Positions 50,460 to 58,987 are shown, counted from the stretch's first letter. The stretch is DNA of 64,000 nt from Arthrobacter sp. (GCA_035254945.1 DATFAE010000022.1:7691-71690), one strand, 5' to 3'. Notes: generated by a model from the letters alone, not told the origin. Numbers and translations are program-made.

Positions 50460-51728
50460 GTGGCGGCGACGCTGAGCCTTGGACAGGCGCGGCGGATCGC
50501 CCTGGCAGCCCAAGGTCTGGACAAAGGACGGCCCTCCGGCCCCGTGACTTCACGGACGGTGGGCCGTACCTTTGCCCGCCTGCAGCTGGTCCAGATCGAT
50601 TCCGTCAACGTGGTCTCGCGGAGCCACTACCTGCCGTTTTTCTCGCGCCTGGGCAACTACGACCGGAGTATCCTGCAGCGCATGTCCAGCACCCGCCCAC
50701 GGCGCATGATGGAGTATTGGGCGCATGAGGCCAGCTACATCCGGCCGGAGCACTTCCAGGATCTGGTGCAGTGGCAAAAGCGTAAATGGGTCGGGGCCGC
50801 CGCCATGGATCCCGGGCTGCGCGAAGCCGTGGCCGGAAAAATCCTGGCGGTCCTGGCCCGCGGACGGGCCATGACGGCTGCCGAACTGACGGTTGAAATC
50901 GGGCATGTGGAAGACCGCCGGAGTGACAACTGGGGGTGGAACTGGAACGCCGTCAAAAGGGTTCTTGAACATCTGTTTGAAGCGGGCGTCGTTTCCGCAG
51001 CGTCCCGCACGGAACAATTCGAGCGCAGGTACACCCTGACTGCGCGGGTGCTGCCGGACCGGCGGGCCCTGGATGAGGAACGGCGGGACCCCGTAGAGTC
51101 CATGCGCCGCCTGATCGACGCGGCCGCACAGGCCCACGGCATCGGAACCGTGAAGTGCTTCGCTGACTATTTCCGCACGCCGGTCAAGCCCGCTGCCGCC
51201 GCCGTGGAGCATTTGGTAGGCACCGGGCGGCTGACGCCCGTTACTGTTGCGGGCTGGGACAGGGAAGTGTACCTGCACGCTGATGCCCGGACGCCGCGGC
51301 GGGCGGTGGGCCGGGCCCTGCTCAGTCCCTTTGACTCGCTGGTCTTTGAACGCCGCCGGCTGGAAGAACTCTTCGGCTTCCACTACCGCATCGAGATTTA
51401 CACCCCTGAACACCGGCGTCGGTTCGGCTATTACGTCCTGCCGTTCCTGCTGGGGGAAACCCTGGTGGCACGGGTGGATCTTAAGGCCGACCGTGCTGCC
51501 GGACAGTTGCTGGTCCGCTCCGCCTACCGCGAGCCAGGCGCCCCGCCGGGAACCGCCGTCGAACTGGCAGCCGAGCTGGAACTGATGGCTGAGTGGCTGG
51601 GGTTGGGGGACGTTGTGGTCAGCCCGGTAGGGGACCTGGCGGGTGACCTTGCTGCGGCGGTCGGAGCTGGCGGAAGCGCTATCCGCTCTCAGGGAACACA
51701 GGCATCGTGGCCTGTGTCTCTCCCGTAG
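50460..51728 (+). CDS. YcaQ/AlkZ-like (HTH_42) DNA glycosylase
   Basis: [22 protein letters not shown] (QxD), [35 protein letters not shown]. Confidence 0.88.
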
Positions 51729-51774
51729 ACTAAAAACGCCAGAATTCGGCGGCAGAGACTGGGAGCATCTTCAC

Positions 51775-54513
51775 GTGGCATCACTTATCGAAAAACTTCT
51801 CCGTACGGGTGACAAAAAAACCCTCCGGCAACTGCGCAACTATGCCGACTCCATCAATGCCCTCGAAGACTCGTTCAAGACGTTCACTGACGCCGAACTC
51901 CGCGAAGAAACCGACCGCCTCCGGTCACGCCACCAGGACGGCGAAAAGCTGGATGACCTCCTGCCGGAGGCCTTTGCAGCCGTGCGGGAGGCCTCATCCC
52001 GAACCCTGGGCATGCGCCACTTCGATGTCCAGATGATGGGTGGCGCTGCCCTTCACCTGGGCAATATCGCCGAGATGAAGACCGGTGAAGGCAAGACCCT
52101 GGTGGCCACTGCTCCGGCCTACCTCAACGCCCTCACCGGGAACGGCGTCCACGTCATCACCGTGAACGACTACCTCGCCGAATACCAGTCAGACCTGATG
52201 GGCCGTGTTTACCGATTCCTGGGCCTGACCAGCGGATGCATCCTGTCCAACCAGGACCCGTCCGTCCGCCGGGAGCAGTACGCAGCGGACATCACCTACG
52301 GCACCAACAACGAATTCGGCTTCGATTACCTCCGCGACAACATGGCGTGGGACCGCTCAGAGCTGGTCCAGCGCGGCCACCACTTCGCGATCGTGGATGA
52401 GGTTGACTCCATCCTGATCGACGAGGCCCGGACGCCGCTGATCATCTCCGGGCCCGCCCAGGGCGACACCAACCGCTGGTACAGCGAATTCGCCAAAGTA
52501 GTCCTTCGTCTCCAGCCCGAACACGACTACGAGGTTGACGAGAAGAAGCGCACCGTTGGCGTCCTCGAAAGTGGAATCGAAAAGGTTGAAGACTACCTCG
52601 GGATCCAGAACCTGTACGAGTCCGCCAACACCCCGCTCATCGGATTCCTGAACAACGCCATCAAGGCCAAAGAATTGTTCAAGCGCGACAAGGACTACGT
52701 CATCCTGGACGGCGAAGTCCTGATTGTTGACGAACATACCGGACGAATCCTTGCCGGCCGGCGCTACAACGAGGGCATGCACCAGGCAATCGAGGCCAAG
52801 GAAGGCGTCGAGATCAAGGCCGAAAACCAGACGCTGGCCACGGTGACGCTCCAGAACTACTTCCGCATGTACGGCAAGCTCTCCGGCATGACCGGCACCG
52901 CGGAGACCGAAGCCGCCGAGTTCATGGGGACCTACAAGCTCGGTGTTGTTGCGATTCCCACCAACCGCGACATGCAGCGGATCGACCAGTCCGACCTCGT
53001 GTTCAAGAACGAAAAAGTCAAATTCGACGCCGTGGTGAAGGATATTGCCGAACGCCACGAAAAGGGCCAGCCAGTCCTGGTTGGCACCACGAGCGTTGAA
53101 AAGAGCGAATACCTCTCCGGGCTGCTCGCCAAGGAGGGCATCAGGCACGAAGTCCTCAACGCCAAGAACCATGCCCGCGAGGCCGCCATTGTCGCGCAGG
53201 CCGGCCGCAAGGGCGCCGTCACCGTCGCCACGAACATGGCCGGCCGTGGCACCGACATCATGCTGGGCGGCAACGCCGAATTCACCGCTGTCGCCGAGCT
53301 CGCCAAGCGAGGGCTGGACCCGGAGGAGAACTCCGAGGAGTACGAGGCCGCGTGGCCCGCTGCCTTTGAGGCAGCCAAGCAGTCCGTCAAGGACGAACAC
53401 GAGCAAGTGCTGAGCCTCGGCGGCCTCTACGTCCTTGGCACCGAACGTCACGAATCCCGCCGCATCGACAACCAGCTCAGGGGCCGTTCCGGCCGCCAGG
53501 GCGATCCTGGCGAGTCGCGGTTCTATCTTTCCCTGACCGATGACCTGATGCGGCTGTTCAACTCAGGGGCCGCAGAGCGCCTGATGAACAGTTCAGTGCC
53601 CGACGACGTCGCGCTGGAATCCAAGCTGGTGTCCCGTGCCATCGCTTCCGCGCAGGGGCAGGTGGAAGGCCGCAACGCCGAACAGCGCAAGAACGTCCTG
53701 AAATACGACGACGTCCTGAACCGCCAGCGCGAAGCCATCTACGGCGACCGCCGCCGGATCCTGGAAGGCGACGACCTGCACGAAAAGGTGCAGTTCTTTG
53801 TCGAAGACACCATCACGGCCCTCATCGACGCCGCCACGGCTGAGGGCAACGGCGATGACTGGGACTACAACCAGCTGTGGACCAACCTGAAAACCCTGTA
53901 CCCGGTGAGCGTCACTGCGGAGGACATCATCGACGAGGCGGGCGGAAAATCCCGGCTCACGGTCGAGTTCCTCAAGGAAGAGCTCCTCTCCGACGCCAGG
54001 CTGGTGTACCAGGCACGTGAAGAGGCCATCGGCTCCGAAAGCATGCGGGAGCTGGAACGCCGCGTGGTGCTGTCCGTCATCGGGCGCAAGTGGCAGGAAC
54101 ATCTTTATGAGATGGACTACCTGAAGGAAGGCATCGGCCTGCGCGCAATGGCCCAGCGTGACCCGCTCGTGGAGTACCAGCGGGAAGGGTTCACGATGTT
54201 CCAGAGCATGATGGAGGCCATCCGCGAGGAAAGTGTGGGCTTCCTCTTCAACCTCGAAGTGGAGGTCACCCCGGCGCAGGACGTCGTGGTTGCCGACGCC
54301 GCGGGCGGACACACCGAGCACGTAGAACCGCAGATCCGTGCTGCTGGACTGGAGGCGCCGGAGAAGCCCGCGCAGCTGCAGTACACGGCTCCTGGTGAAG
54401 ACGGCGCAAGCCAGACACGCGTTGAAAGCCGTTCTTCAGGCCGTTCGGGCAACCCGGCGAAGGCGGCCGCACAGGACGGTGCCAGGAAGCCTGGCAAGAA
54501 GAAGCGCCGCTGA
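51775..54513 (+). CDS. secA: Preprotein translocase ATPase SecA
   Basis: [48 protein letters not shown]-like, [16 protein letters not shown]; GTG 51775. Confidence 0.97.
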
Positions 54514-54604: not shown

Positions 54605-55069
54605 TCAGCCGATCACGAGTTCCGTGACACGCCACACCTCCTTGCTTCGTTCCAGCCGGACAGCCACGGCACGTGCCCGGACGTCGTCAACGACAACGGC
54701 ACTGGCTTCGTAGATCCCGGGAGCGGCTTCGCACAGGCGGACTGACCTCACCACGGAGTTCTTGTGCAGCCTCGCCAGCGACGGCGACGATGAGCGGGCA
54801 AGCTCACGCCGGATCAACGACGCCCGATGCTGCAGCGCCGCCAGACAGCGCGGATCCAGGCGGCGCGAAAGCTGCTGGACTGGCCGGATACCTGCCAGGA
54901 CCTCCATGGAAGCCTGGACCGTGCTACGTATGATAGCGAGGACCTCGGCCTTTTCGTCGACGGCCCTGAGGGGGTGGGCAGCAAGTCCCGCCCGGTCCTG
55001 AGCCTGCCGCACGGCCACTGACCGGTTCGAGCCCGGGGCTGCGGGGCGGATAGGTGTTACTGCACTCAT
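54605..55069 (-). CDS. Rv3235 family protein
   Basis: MEVLAGIRPVQQLSR, SVRLC..EASAVV..RARAVAVRLE..WRVTELVIG; RBS AAGGGG. Confidence 0.8.
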   Translation of the reverse strand: MSAVTPIRPAAPGSNRSVAVRQAQDRAGLAAHPLRAVDEKAEVLAIIRSTVQASMEVLAGIRPVQQLSRRLDPRCLAALQHRASLIRRELARSSSPSLARLHKNSVVRSVRLCEAAPGIYEASAVVVDDVRARAVAVRLERSKEVWRVTELVIG

Positions 55070-55110: not shown

Positions 55111-55920
55111 CTAGGCCGCAGCCGGTGGTTTCAGAAGTTGACCCGGAAGCAGGACATCCGGGTTGTGGCCAATTGCGGCCTTGTTGGCCTGGTACCAGCG
55201 CGGCCAGTGCAACGCCACTTCGACATCCGAGGCTCCCGGTCCCAGGTCCCTGGCCGCGATGTCCCAGAGGGTGTCGCCGGCGAGGACGGTGACCTCTGCC
55301 GGGGCCGCCGTTTGCGCTTGCCCGGCGCGTACAGGCCAGGCAACCGTGAGGCCCGGATCGGTTACCGGGGTACTCGGCCGCCAGTTCGGCTCCAACCCCG
55401 ACATTGGACCCTGATCCTCCAAAGCAGAATCGGCAGCGTCACTGCTTAAGGCACCATCAATTCCAAATGTGGCGGAAGTGCCGCCCGTGGGCACCCACGC
55501 GGCTGGGACCGGGACGGCTGTGGTGGGACCCCAGCCCGGTCCGGAGGCTGGTTCAGCGGCCTGGGCAAGTGGGCCGGAAACGAGCTGGACGGACAGCACA
55601 GCCAGCGCCAGGCGGCGCATGAATGAGGGACAGAACTTTCCGGCAGCGGCGGCCGCGCGTTGCTTCCCTGTCCGTTCCAGGACTGCTGAGAGAAAAGCGC
55701 AGGACATGGAGACAGCCCACCAGGCGGTGAGTGCCAGACCTGCCGTACTTATGGCAGCTCCCAGAAGGTGGTCGAAATCAGGAGCTTGCTTCCCGGGGGC
55801 TGTCAGTATCCATGGTTTCGTGAATCCAAGCCCCGCAGCCCCAAGGGAGCCGCCCAGAACCAGGATGGCTGCGGTCATGGCGGCGTCGGAGCCGGCCATC
55901 CCCTTCCCAGGTGCCGCCAT
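55111..55920 (-). CDS. Membrane-anchored LysM domain protein
   Basis: N-terminal hydrophobic helices, Pro/Ala linker, VTVLAGDTLWDIAA..WYQAN..IGHNPDVLLPGQLL; RBS GGAGAAGG before ATG 55920. Confidence 0.82.
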   Translation of the reverse strand: MAAPGKGMAGSDAAMTAAILVLGGSLGAAGLGFTKPWILTAPGKQAPDFDHLLGAAISTAGLALTAWWAVSMSCAFLSAVLERTGKQRAAAAAGKFCPSFMRRLALAVLSVQLVSGPLAQAAEPASGPGWGPTTAVPVPAAWVPTGGTSATFGIDGALSSDAADSALEDQGPMSGLEPNWRPSTPVTDPGLTVAWPVRAGQAQTAAPAEVTVLAGDTLWDIAARDLGPGASDVEVALHWPRWYQANKAAIGHNPDVLLPGQLLKPPAAA

Positions 55921-55934
55921 TGCCTTCTCCGTTC

Positions 55935-56002
55935 CGTTTGATGCTGTTTGATAGACTTTGATGCAATTAATGACAGTTTGCACTGCATTTATAATTTTTG
56001 TC
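55935..56002. repeat. 10-bp phased AT-rich direct-repeat array (TTTGAT core)
   Basis: TTTGATGC 55937, TTTGATAG 55947, TTTGATGC 55957, degenerate units near 55967, 55977, 55987, 55997. Confidence 0.8.
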
Positions 56003-56064
56003 CAGACGTTGGAGAGAATTGGTTGTGAATTGACCGGGCGTCACGGGCGCCCTACGCTGGCCGA

Positions 56065-56637
56065 ATGCGTTGGGATGAACTCTTCAATGACATGGAAGCG
56101 CAGTTTGCTGAAGGCGGCAGGCTGGCCATGGAAGCCGAAATTTCGGAACGCGCAAGGGCGGACACTGCTGGACTCCTGCTGGCAGACCGCCTGCGTGGAT
56201 CCTTGGGCACGCTGGTGAAGGTGCATCTTGTATCCGGCGCGGTCTTCGAAGGGACCCTGACTTATACGGGCGCCGATGCGTTGGTCCTGAATGACAAGCG
56301 CCACCAGGTGCTGGTTCCCCACGGCGCCGTACTGAGGTACGCCGGATTGGGGCGTTTCTCGGTCGACGAGCCCTCAGTTGTGCGGAGCAGCATGGGGCTG
56401 TCGAATGCCCTTCGAGCCCTGGCCCGGGACCGGTCCGAACTGACGGTCATCCTCAGGGGCGCGGACGTGCGGGACTCCGGGGTGACCGGAGTCATCGATA
56501 GGGTGGGCCGGGACTACTTCGACCTGGCTGCGGTGCGGCCCGGTGAAGCGCGACGTGCCCTGCACGTGGGCCAGGTGTCCACGATTCCGTTTTCCGCGCT
56601 CGCCGCGATCAGGTCACCAATCACAGGCGACCTGTAG
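56065..56637 (+). CDS. Hypothetical protein with two Sm/Hfq-like repeats
   Basis: MRWDELFNDMEAQ N-terminus, internal repeat of L.G..G.l..vG.D.l.L..v.vP..A; TACGCT -10 six nt before ATG. Confidence 0.7.
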   Translation: MRWDELFNDMEAQFAEGGRLAMEAEISERARADTAGLLLADRLRGSLGTLVKVHLVSGAVFEGTLTYTGADALVLNDKRHQVLVPHGAVLRYAGLGRFSVDEPSVVRSSMGLSNALRALARDRSELTVILRGADVRDSGVTGVIDRVGRDYFDLAAVRPGEARRALHVGQVSTIPFSALAAIRSPITGDL

Positions 56638-56666
56638 CCGCCGGAGCTTGGCGGCCGGCAGGGCCT

Positions 56667-56882
56667 TCAGATTGATTTGGACTTGGATTCCTGGATCATC
56701 CGGCTCGCCTCGGCATAGCGCTCCTCGATGTACTGCTCCAGCATTTTCTCCTCGACGCGCCACTGGCCGCGCCCGCCAACCTGGATGGCTTTAAGCTCGC
56801 CGCTGCGGACCAGAGCATAGGCCGCCGGCGAGTTGATCTGAAGCTGCTCTGCGACGTCTGCAAGGGTCAGGAATCTGGGCAT
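56667..56882 (-). CDS. Small HTH_17 (Xis/BldC-like, MerR-type wHTH) DNA-binding protein
   Basis: MPRFLTLADVAEQLQI..AYALVRSGELKAIQVGGRGQWRV; CAAAAT -10 six nt before ATG 56882. Confidence 0.85.
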   Translation of the reverse strand: MPRFLTLADVAEQLQINSPAAYALVRSGELKAIQVGGRGQWRVEEKMLEQYIEERYAEASRMIQESKSKSI

Positions 56883-56907
56883 AACCCTATTTTGCCACTC
56901 CAGAGCC

Positions 56908-56955
56908 CATATGATGCGGTTATCCACAATTTGATGCCGTTTATCATTTTGACTT
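56908..56955. promoter_or_regulatory. Second 10-bp phased array containing a perfect DnaA box
   Basis: TATGATGC 56910, TTATCCACA 56920, TTTGATGC 56930, TTTATCAT 56940, TTTGAC 56948. Confidence 0.7.
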
Positions 56956-57038
56956 CCGGTTCCGGCGTCCATGCCGTAACAATGAGGTTGTCCGGGTGCG
57001 GCCAACCGTCCCGGTGCGGAGCGAGGGGGAGACTGCGC

Positions 57039-57683
57039 GTGAGTTTTGGTGGAGAATCTGCAGCGGCGAGGCTGAAGCGGCCGTCCTGGAAGGATCCGCG
57101 GCTGCTCGTGGGAATACTCCTTGTCCTTGCGTCCGTGGCGGGGGTTATTTCCCTGGTAGGCAGCGCCGACAGGACCACCGAGGTCTATGCGGCCCGCGAT
57201 GCCATTGCGGTGGGCGAAACGCTGACGGAGGACAACGTGGTCCGCGCCAAAGTGCGGCTGGGTGACACCGAGCAGCACTACATCACGGTCGAGGCCGGCC
57301 TGCCTGAAGGTGTCGTGGCCGTCCAAAGAATCGGCAAGGACCAATTGGTCCCGCGGGAAAGCCTGGGCAGCGTGGATGCCCTGGACCGCAAGCCCGTCGC
57401 AGTGGCCGTCGAGGAGGCACTCCCAAGCCAGGTTGTTGACGGCACGCGGGTGGACGTCTGGGTTGCCATGCCAGATGCGAAGAACGGATTCAGCGAACCG
57501 AAACTACTCCTTCCAGGCGCCGAAATAGCGCAGATCACGTCCGGATCCACAACGTTGGGCTCGTCGCGAAGCACCGTGCTGATGATCCTGGTGTCGGACA
57601 GCCAAATGCCGGCACTCCTGGGCGCACAGGCTAACCAGGCCAAGATCTCCGTGGTCTGGAGTCCCGGCGGGGCCGCTTCGTGA
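57039..57683 (+). CDS. SAF-domain / CpaB(RcpC)-like protein
   Basis: RLKRPSWKDPRLLVGILLV TM helix, YAARDAIAVGETL, GTRVDVWV; RBS GGGGGAG before GTG 57039. Confidence 0.75.
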   Translation: MSFGGESAAARLKRPSWKDPRLLVGILLVLASVAGVISLVGSADRTTEVYAARDAIAVGETLTEDNVVRAKVRLGDTEQHYITVEAGLPEGVVAVQRIGKDQLVPRESLGSVDALDRKPVAVAVEEALPSQVVDGTRVDVWVAMPDAKNGFSEPKLLLPGAEIAQITSGSTTLGSSRSTVLMILVSDSQMPALLGAQANQAKISVVWSPGGAAS

Positions 57684-58987
57684 GCATCCCGGTGGTAACC
57701 GTCGGTGAGGCCCAGGAAGATGTAGTGGGCGGCCTTGAACGGTTGCACGGCCCTGTCACCGTGGTCCGCAGGTGCGCCGAACTCGCAGAGTTGCTGGCAG
57801 CCTGCCAGAGCGGACTGGCCCGTGCAGCGGTGATTGCAGACGGATGTGAGGGATTGACCGCTTCCCTTGTTGACAGGCTCGGCGCGGTCGGTGTGGCCAT
57901 CATTGCCCTCACAGACAACCCGGTCGAAGCATCCCGGCTCCGTGGGATCGGTGTTGCGTCGGCGTTGTCGGGCGTTGAGTCCGCAGCCCTGGCCGCAAGG
58001 ATATCTGAGGCCGTTGGCCAGCTTGCGGGTTCCGGTCAGCCCGGCAGTCCGGCAGCTGGCCTGGCCGATCCCTCCGCCGCCTTAAGGCCCGTGGCCGCCG
58101 CACCCGAGGACGTCCCGGTGGCTTCCGGTACGGGCACCGTCATTGCGGTCTGGGGCCCGGCGGGGTCCCCGGGGCGGACGTTCGTGGCAGCGAATATGGC
58201 GGGGGAGCTGGCGGCGGAGGGGAAGTCCGTCCTCCTGATTGATGCCGACAGCTATGGGGCCAGCATTGCAGCCGTCCTTGGCCTGCTGGATGAAGCGGCC
58301 GGGCTGGCCCAGGCCTGCAGGCTTGCGGACCAAGGTGTGCTGGACGCCGACGCAATGCTCAGGGTAACCGCTACAGTGGCAACCAAACTGGGCACCTTCC
58401 GGGTCCTGACCGGCATCACCCGGGCGGACAGATGGACCGAACTCCGGGCGGCAGCGCTGTCACTGGTAGTGGAGCGCGGGCGCGAAATTGCCGATGTGGT
58501 GGTCATTGATACCGGATTCTGCCTTGAGGCGGACGAAGAGCTCAGCTTCGACACCATGGCCCCGCGGCGCAATGCGGCCACGCTGCGCAGCCTGGAGTTG
58601 GCAGACACTGTCTTTGCCATTGGCTCGGCAGATCCTATCGGCGTTCCGCGGCTGGTCCGTGGCCTGACTGAACTTGAGCTTGCCGTCCCGCATGTCACTC
58701 CGATTGTCGTGCTTAACAAGGTGCGCGCCGGCGCGGTGGGCAGGTCACCAGAACGACAATTGCGCGACGCATGGGAACGGTACGGACCCGCCGCAGGAAT
58801 TAATGCGTTTCTGCCGGCGGACGGGCCCGCCGCCGATTCGGCCCTGCTCGGCGGCTCCCTGCTGCTTGAATCTTCCCCCGACTCGAAGCTAAGGACCGCA
58901 ATCGCACAATTGGTCTGTGCATCCGTCCAGCAAAAACCTGCATCCTCTGTATTTTCTTCCACACCGAGGCGTCGGCTAAAGGGTTAG
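57680..58987 (+). CDS. CpaE/TadZ-MinD-like ATPase with N-terminal receiver-like domain
   Basis: Deviant Walker A WGPAGSPGRT, VLLIDADSYG, VVIDTGF, VVLNKVR; GTGA overlap with the SAF gene. Confidence 0.82.
   Translation: MSIPVVTVGEAQEDVVGGLERLHGPVTVVRRCAELAELLAACQSGLARAAVIADGCEGLTASLVDRLGAVGVAIIALTDNPVEASRLRGIGVASALSGVESAALAARISEAVGQLAGSGQPGSPAAGLADPSAALRPVAAAPEDVPVASGTGTVIAVWGPAGSPGRTFVAANMAGELAAEGKSVLLIDADSYGASIAAVLGLLDEAAGLAQACRLADQGVLDADAMLRVTATVATKLGTFRVLTGITRADRWTELRAAALSLVVERGREIADVVVIDTGFCLEADEELSFDTMAPRRNAATLRSLELADTVFAIGSADPIGVPRLVRGLTELELAVPHVTPIVVLNKVRAGAVGRSPERQLRDAWERYGPAAGINAFLPADGPAADSALLGGSLLLESSPDSKLRTAIAQLVCASVQQKPASSVFSSTPRRRLKG

Follow-up and report, generated by a model that had tools for sequence, protein, structure and literature searches.

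A conserved three-unit phased direct repeat in a divergent LysM/p190 intergenic region, a candidate operator for a lone HTH_17 protein

Background

In the window (the whole stretch of 64,000 nucleotides that was analysed) the tetranucleotide TTTG recurs at positions 55937, 55947, 55957, 55977 and 55997, upstream of a gene for a LysM-domain membrane protein. A first-pass annotation of this DNA had read these positions, together with degenerate units near 55967 and 55987, as one array of seven direct repeats. It had also proposed that the array is a filament-type platform for a small HTH_17 protein encoded about 700 bp away, in the manner of BldC of Streptomyces. All of these positions were borne out by the sequence, and the 71-aa protein indeed matches HTH_17 (PF12728). 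The question raised by this locus is which of the seven units belong to a true repeat, how well that repeat is conserved and which protein is the most likely to read it.

Results

Gene neighbourhood of the repeats

By the names given to near-identical proteins, the window comes from an actinobacterium of the Arthrobacter/Paenarthrobacter type. The genes of the locus are:

51643-54513, plus strand, secA, beside the module
54605-55069, minus strand, DUF6459/Rv3235-family gene, downstream of the LysM gene on the same strand
55111-55920, minus strand, LysM-domain membrane protein gene, 269 aa when read from the ATG at 55920; likely target of the regulation
56065-56637, plus strand, p190, encoding a 190-aa protein without a Pfam family, divergent from the LysM gene
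56667-56882, minus strand, gene of the 71-aa HTH_17 protein, the candidate reader of the array and orthologue of M. luteus Mlut_14660
57039-57683, plus strand, SAF/CpaB-like gene
57680-58987, plus strand, Ssd/CpaE-like ATPase gene

A large ORF of 1619 aa, putatively gdh, is also part of the neighbourhood. The start codon of the LysM gene was placed at the ATG at 55920, with the Shine-Dalgarno sequence (SD) GGAGAAGG at 55923-55930; the upstream GTG of the mechanically called ORF was rejected in its favour. With this start, the repeats fall within the divergent LysM/p190 intergenic region of 144 bp (55921-56064), and only 16 nt separate unit 1 from the LysM start codon. The G + C content of this intergenic region is 43%, versus approximately 66% in its surroundings.

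All 24 same-genus genomes and most of the sampled families of the order have the gene order LysM-p190-HTH-SAF, including the HTH orthologue. Within the genus the HTH protein (90–97% identity) is much better kept than its neighbours p190 (47–81%) and LysM (approximately 36–65%). In profile searches, no DNA-binding domain other than HTH_17 could be recognised among the proteins encoded by the module. The first, beta-rich domain of p190 (approximately residues 41–105) gave weak, repeated matches to Hfq, LSm and DUF2642. Hfq/LSm chains were hit in the profile search with E values of 0.04–1.6, and DUF2642 was matched by 5 of 30 p190 orthologues (best E value 1e-7). A single-sequence structure model of p190 was poor (pLDDT 44.9) and was set aside. 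The N-terminus of p190 (MRWD.LF.D.E.Q) and an RDR motif are nearly invariant. In one genome (G179), a deletion takes out the array, p190, the HTH gene, the SAF gene and most of the Ssd-like gene, so that the 5' end of LysM directly abuts the remaining 80 or so final codons of the latter.

Sequence and rarity of the repeat

The first four units, all in the same orientation, are:

55937-55946, plus strand, unit 1, TTTGATGCTG, preceded by a G at 55936; the unit closest to the LysM start
55947-55956, plus strand, unit 2, TTTGATAGAC; consensus TTTGATGC.G
55957-55966, plus strand, unit 3, TTTGATGCAA
55967-55976, plus strand, 'unit 4', TTAATGACAG, degenerate; the spacer around the predicted LysM transcription start

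The first three units begin with TTTGATGC, TTTGATAG and TTTGATGC, and the true repeat family consists of these three only: GTTTGATGC, i.e. (G)TTTGATGCnG three times at an exact 10-bp spacing and in the same orientation (55936-55966). The 'unit 6' at 55987 (ATTTATAATT) is degenerate, like 'unit 4'. Among 74 units compared, the ninth position was a C in 57%, and the middle GATG was conserved.

The pattern is far beyond chance. In the 4.35-Mb genome, searched on both strands, this is the sole locus with at least four of seven TTTG slots at 10-bp spacing; elsewhere the maximum was three, as it was genome-wide for the control periods of 8, 9, 11 and 12 bp. The whole genome contained no further copy of TTTGA-N5-TTTGA-N5-TTTGA or of TTTGAT-N4-TTTGAT. 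A position matrix built from the orthologous units and applied as phased triplets ranked units 1–3 on top at 46 bits, with the next independent loci at 22, 16 and 14 bits. When the remaining phased or paired matches in the genome were searched for a regulon, they proved to be a TTGACA promoter (one contig), coding sequence (two contigs) and an overlap with a start codon (one contig). Neither the array nor the TT(A/G)TCCACA box described below was found upstream of comEA/comEC in this genome.

Conservation of the array

The regions upstream of p190 in the 24 same-genus genomes were aligned as 10-bp blocks anchored on unit 7. Units 1–3 retain both their sequence and their 10-bp phase in all 24. 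The block consensus was TTTGATg..g for unit 1, TTTGATgc.G for unit 2, TTTGATg..g for unit 3, TTTGA.C for unit 5 and TTTGTCcAgA for unit 7. In-phase TTTG was present in 17, 18 and 16 of the 24 loci at units 1, 2 and 3, respectively, and in 16 at unit 5. At unit 4 it was present in one of 24, with a mean top-base frequency of 0.55, and unit 6 was unconserved. In total, 90 of the 103 TTTG occurrences in the 24 regions share the same phase modulo 10. The 10-bp periodicity in orthologous intergenic regions, on which the earlier reading hinged, is thus present, and the direct repeats at one-helical-turn spacing are real and strongly conserved. Some species have a fourth unit upstream. Four same-genus genomes show a shift of 1–2 bp between array and promoter.

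Two-unit versions were found in three other families of the order. The exact pair TTTGAT-N4-TTTGAT was present in 77 of 151 family genomes and in 31 of 38 genera (one unpublished genome, G170, is counted in these tallies, and none of the individual claims depends on it), versus 11 genomes for the reversed control. Collated by hand, the pair lies inside this gene module in at least 57 of the 77 genomes.

Units 5 and 7 as a predicted LysM promoter

Two features on the opposite strand overlap the outer units:

55975-55980, minus strand, predicted LysM -10, CAAACT, overlapping 'unit 5'; conserved as CAnnnT
55999-56004, minus strand, predicted LysM -35, TGGACA, within 'unit 7' (TTTGTCCAGA, 55997-56006), separated from the -10 by 18 nt

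In the genus, in further genera and in a second family, the -10 element occurs as CAAACT, CAAAAT, CAGACT, CACACT, CATGAT, CATGCT, CAGGAT and CACCCT. The A2 and T6 of CAnnnT were invariant in every locus read, whereas the TTTG at this position varies (TCTG, TGTG, CTTG). TTTGTC(C/T)A was present in 24 of 30 loci, and also in other genera and families, with a 17- or 18-nt spacer to CAnnnT; on the minus strand unit 7 reads TGGACA here and TAGACA in other species. Because the constraint on units 5 and 7 matches the form of a -10 and a -35 while the TTTG of unit 5 varies, we read them as the LysM promoter: from their conservation, T(G/A)GACA-17/18-CAnnnT is the predicted -35 and -10. A consensus promoter scan of 55850-57100 gave no sigma-70-type call, the LysM promoter included.

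Judging from the position of the -10, LysM transcription would start at about 55968 on the minus strand. Units 1–3 would then span about +2 to +32 of this transcript and end 7 nt before the SD. The distance from unit 3 to the -35 is 42 bp here and about 35, 43 or 45–46 bp in other genera.

The claim of a seven-unit array thus holds in part. Units 1–3 share a consensus of 8–9 bp, but units 4 and 6 are unconserved and units 5 and 7 are promoter-like sequences. The seven units as described are better divided into an operator of three units and predicted promoter elements with a partial resemblance to them.

The second intergenic region and other promoters

Two further features were recorded:

56910-56955, plus strand, second phased array, weaker than the first, between the HTH and SAF genes: TATGATGC at 56910, TTATCCACA at 56920, TTTGATGC at 56930, TTTATCAT at 56940 and TTGACT at 56949
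56030-56067, plus strand, p190 promoter: TTGACC at 56030-56035, 17 nt, TACGCT at 56053-56058, 6 nt, ATG at 56065; conserved in the genus

The second array scored 15–16 bits in the phased scan, placing it among the four loci of the genome above 12 bits, and its 10-bp TTTG register is kept in the genus. Within it, GTTATCCACAG is nearly invariant in the genus (T for A in one locus, A for T in another), and the flanking units vary (TTTGnTGC, TTTGnnnnnG, TTTGG). Exact TTTGAT-N4-TTTGAT pairs lie in the HTH/SAF region of five genomes of other genera.

One element of this region belongs to a different motif. TTATCCACA has 44 copies in the genome, versus approximately 7–8 expected from the base composition; the copies are clustered, and three of them lie on the dnaA contig. 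TT(A/G)TCCACA is probably the DnaA box of this organism. The sequence TT(A/G)TCCACA(G), with the core (A/G)TCCACAG, precedes the SAF gene in all loci examined, and also those HTH genes that have been relocated (see below). The match to the DnaA box is 9/9 for TTATCCACA (56920-56928) and 8/9 for TTGTCCAGA (55998-56006); the -35/unit 7 thus resembles the DnaA-box-like element of the second region. With this assignment TT(A/G)TCCACA would be removed as the main competitor for the HTH protein's own site, which would leave the TTTGATGC units as the candidate motif for the HTH protein. A DnaA-box cluster was rejected as an explanation of units 1–3, which read TTTGATGC and not TT(A/G)TCCACA.

The p190 promoter is separate from the repeat array. 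In seven other same-genus loci CTGTGGAT, an inverted DnaA-box-like core, overlaps the p190 -35 TTGACC; its counterpart here (TTGTGAAT, 56022-56035) is degenerate. The HTH promoter has the -10 TGGCAAAAT, 6 nt from the ATG (56882-56897). The p190 and HTH transcripts look leaderless, the -10 standing at a fixed 6 nt from the start codon across the genus. The HTH gene of M. luteus has an SD and a 5' UTR instead.

The HTH_17 protein

The 71-aa protein matched PF12728 (HTH_17) with an E value of 1.4e-12 (48.1 bits versus a cut-off of 27) and TIGR01764, an excisionase-family DNA-binding domain, with 34.5 bits (cut-off 28.8); its Pfam family is HTH_17 and not one of the MerR families. A structure model built from 22 orthologues (pLDDT 87.7) has the elements E4-6, H7-14, H18-27, E41-44 and H45-70, a beta-alpha-alpha-wing-alpha layout. 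In this model the protein appears to be a lone MerR-like winged helix-turn-helix (wHTH), lacking an effector or coiled-coil dimerisation domain. The best matches among solved structures were the BldC-DNA complexes 6AMA and 6AMK and Pukovnik Xis (4J2N), with TM scores normalised by target of 0.75–0.86 and rmsd values of 1.2–1.5 Å. The next matches were, among others, RacA, RdfS, N-terminal domains of the MerR family, another excisionase and the phage P2 DNA-binding protein. In a phmmer search of the whole set of PDB chains, nothing was matched by the 71-aa protein at E ≤ 1, BldC included. The modelled fold thus agrees with the earlier suggestion of a BldC-like reader, but a sequence relation to BldC is not detectable.

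Public annotations of this protein range from 71 to 122 aa. The longer calls start inside the intergenic region (56883-57344, minus strand), with a GTG inside the TTATCCACA box as a candidate start. Since the sequence upstream of MPRFLTL is unconserved as protein, the 71-aa form is the likely product. The HTH gene was present in 363 of 401 family genomes and lies in a fixed core synteny near secA in genus and family. A site for a recombination directionality factor or mobile-element Xis was rejected on account of this core chromosomal synteny, the 363 of 401 genomes, and a six-gene module in which no integrase or mobile element was seen.

The orthologue in M. luteus

In a chemical mutagenesis of M. 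luteus for derepressed comEA/EC, mutations fell in Mlut_14660 (HTH_17) and the divergent SAF gene Mlut_14650 in almost every mutant (PMC8467076). The point mutations S27L, S46F and R64W in Mlut_14660 derepress comEA/EC, showing that it is a working regulator; a deletion of Mlut_14660 was unobtainable, and a DNA-binding site was not reported (PMC8467076).

A 2.5-Mb, single-contig M. luteus-like genome (G201) carries the Mlut_14660 orthologue at position 1607034. Its codons 27, 46 and 64 are TCG, TCC and CGG, as needed for S27L, S46F and R64W, at a constant offset of 91 bp, and its -8 base is the G of GAAGGAG, matching the published SD mutation. All published M. luteus cluster-13 mutations were reproduced at this locus (G201:C1:1605537-1608713). 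The 71-aa protein is 66–68% identical to the M. luteus orthologue over residues 2–61, and the two are reciprocal best matches with shared synteny. With the mutant codons and the -8 base reproduced, the orthology to Mlut_14660 is solid.

The LysM/p190 region of this genome contains only two units, TTTGGTGATG and TTTGATGATG, approximately 45 bp upstream of the p190 start. They lie upstream of the LysM -35 (TTGACA) and adjoin the p190 promoter, so repression by occlusion cannot be general. The published intergenic mutations of M. luteus, mapped onto this genome, fall at -8 in the SD and at -44 in GC-rich sequence, none of them in a unit or box.

Association of the HTH_17 protein with the array

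The HTH_17 protein is a candidate reader of the array, and the link between the two is circumstantial. One of the next-best phased sites genome-wide is the HTH gene's own promoter region. In four genomes of three genera, exact TTTGAT pairs stand on both sides of the p190-HTH pair, approximately 1 kb apart, and in a fifth genome a pair lies some 60 bp upstream of the HTH gene.

Five genomes without an HTH orthologue also lack p190, SAF and the array at the secA-DUF6459(-LysM) locus. Two of these five retain the LysM gene there, yet have no array; in one of the five, a deletion runs from the LysM start into the Ssd-like gene. Two genomes with p190-HTH-SAF but without an adjacent LysM gene have no array either. 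These patterns of co-absence tie the array to the LysM gene and the module together: it appears only where both the LysM gene and the p190/SAF module are present, as expected of a coupling operator. Co-absence cannot separate HTH from p190 or SAF as the partner of the array.

In seven genera the HTH gene has gone from between p190 and SAF, with the array and the module otherwise unchanged. These genera have a reciprocal-best homologue (52–61% identity) at an unrelated locus, with at most single units upstream of it. Physical linkage of array and HTH gene is therefore not required. In addition, positions 20–23 of the recognition helix differ by genus (AAYA, QAYA, AVRT, QTRI, AARA, QVRS), whereas the TTTGAT core is constant, which argues against base readout by this helix. 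The wing (GGRGQWR) is invariant and could compensate for the varying helix. S27, at the end of the recognition helix, is nearly invariant.

Discussion

Proposed explanation and alternatives

Units 1–3 are a real, conserved cis-element, an operator of the BldC/Xis type in which a lone wHTH, here a candidate reader, would sit on phased direct repeats. We consider it somewhat better than an even chance that this three-unit operator, placed between the predicted LysM promoter and the LysM SD, is read by the 71-aa HTH_17 protein, the most likely reader, which would block RNA polymerase and autoregulate. As with BldC and Xis, HTH_17 monomers would line up head-to-tail along one face of the helix, one to a unit. 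Bound there, the protein would stand in the way of RNA polymerase at the LysM promoter, a regulation of presumably negative sign. Autoregulation would follow from its binding to the weaker phased units upstream of its own gene. A filament may extend further, onto the weaker TTTG elements overlapping the -10 and -35; such spread from the strong units is possible within this genus and is not required by the data.

The most serious competitor, for which the odds are clearly lower, is another protein reading the same operator. This could be an unlinked dedicated transcription factor (e.g. a response regulator on direct repeats of 10–11 bp), a nucleoid-associated protein with a preference for phased T-tracts, or p190. 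Such a reader would account for an array that goes with p190 and SAF in every case, also where the locus has no HTH gene, for changes in the HTH recognition-helix residues under a constant motif, and for units that abut the p190 promoter in the M. luteus-like genome. However, the module encodes no further DNA-binding domain, and p190 looks Sm-like, unlike known DNA binders. Also, one would expect a nucleoid protein or global regulator to have many sites, whereas the phased motif is essentially unique to the module, and three units, not being an even number, are a poor fit to dimeric response regulators. MtrA, PhoP or another global response regulator was rejected in view of the uniqueness of the motif in the genome. 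Unlikely in our judgement is the original proposal of a full seven-unit filament, in which units 1–3 nucleate and the protein spreads in phase over units 4–7, covering the -10 and -35. BldC has been reported to extend from consensus onto non-consensus repeats (PMC5859096), in-phase TTTG does occur within the genus at units 5 (16/24) and 7, and the -10 region reads TCAAAC, a partial unit. Against this stand the lack of conservation of units 4 and 6 and the constraint on unit 5, which is that of a CAnnnT -10 and not of TTTG. The distance from unit 3 to the -35 also differs by genus, with shifts of 1–2 bp even in four same-genus genomes; the phase is therefore without family-wide constraint.

Less probable still are readings at the level of RNA. 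The three CAUCAAAC repeats just upstream of the SD in the LysM leader might be bound by an RNA-binding protein, such as the Sm-like p190, that controls translation or stability; we regard this as improbable. The predicted start does place all three units in a short unstructured leader (z-score +0.95), and p190, with its weak but repeated Sm/Hfq-like matches, is always adjacent. But a conserved unit of 8–9 nt at an exact 10-nt period is typical of B-DNA phasing, and Rfam gave no match at E ≤ 1. The HTH transcript, predicted to be leaderless, would not contain the units of the second intergenic region, since these precede it, and those of the M. luteus-like genome, upstream of the LysM -35, would stay untranscribed. 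A combination of both levels, in which the DNA array nucleates an HTH_17 filament while a ring of the tandem Sm-like p190 recognises the three copies of CAUCAAAC in the leader, seems a shade more improbable yet. If true, it would make p190 an Hfq-like post-transcriptional regulator with a defined periodic target, in a phylum that is generally not known to have Hfq. The least credible reading, to which we give hardly any weight, is a passive feature without a specific reader, either DNA bending by phased T-tracts or the AT-rich promoter DNA as such. The region is an AT-rich island (43% G + C versus approximately 66%) with a run of Ts at each helical turn. However, each TTT is followed by a GATGC that is kept from genus to genus, a constraint that curvature by itself would not impose, and T3 runs are short for A-tract bending. 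We therefore retain units 1–3 as an operator with HTH_17 as its candidate reader.

Implications

Within Actinomycetota, HTH_17 proteins of the Mlut_14660 type are the only regulators of natural competence known from genetics. A unique phased direct-repeat site in the same module offers a concrete candidate operator of 30 bp for these proteins. It also brings into view a target not considered before, namely the LysM cell-wall gene together with the downstream gene of the DUF6459/Rv3235 family. If confirmed, head-to-tail recognition in the style of BldC and Xis would extend to a core chromosomal regulator across the Micrococcaceae and related families.

Comparison with known systems

The boxes of OmpR/PhoB-type response regulators are likewise direct repeats with a periodicity of 10–11 bp in promoter regions. 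They are usually pairs for dimers and regulon-wide, whereas here the module has no response regulator and the motif has no other genomic copies. The Mlut_14660 locus (PMC8467076) has the same synteny, with the SAF/CpaB-like and CpaE-like genes divergent and p190 and LysM on the other side. It differs in that the M. luteus-like genome has two units only, beside the p190 promoter and not at the LysM start.

BldC of Streptomyces binds 2–4 direct repeats one helical turn apart, head-to-tail (two at whiI and four at smeA), with the unit AATTXXXX(C), in which an AT-rich tetrad is followed four bases on by a C-G pair (PMC5859096). Like HTH_17, the BldC that binds the whiI and smeA-ssfA operators (PDB 6AMK, 6AMA; PMC5859096) consists of a small MerR-like winged helix only. 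The direct repeats one turn apart, the T/A-rich start of the unit and the location of operators in promoter regions are also shared. The two proteins have no detectable sequence similarity and are 24–26% identical in the structural alignment. Proteins of the BldC type form oligomers solely on DNA. The BldC unit is read largely by shape, with a free XXXX, whereas the (G)TTTGATGC unit found here is well conserved and keeps its middle GATG. BldC moreover acts pleiotropically through many sites; the present array is essentially the only one of its genome, and its binding by HTH_17 is a prediction.

Phage lambda Xis forms a short filament over three neighbouring sites. Filament-forming factors of the Xis type (Pukovnik Xis, 4J2N; RdfS, 8DGL; D29 Gp36; the phage P2 protein, 4LHF) share with HTH_17 both the fold and the 'excisionase' Pfam/TIGRFAM signature, and D29 Gp36 was reported to repress genes through 3–4 direct repeats (PMC12266134). 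The HTH_17 gene differs from these in being a core syntenic gene of the chromosome, and its candidate target is the promoter of a cell-envelope gene and not an attachment site.
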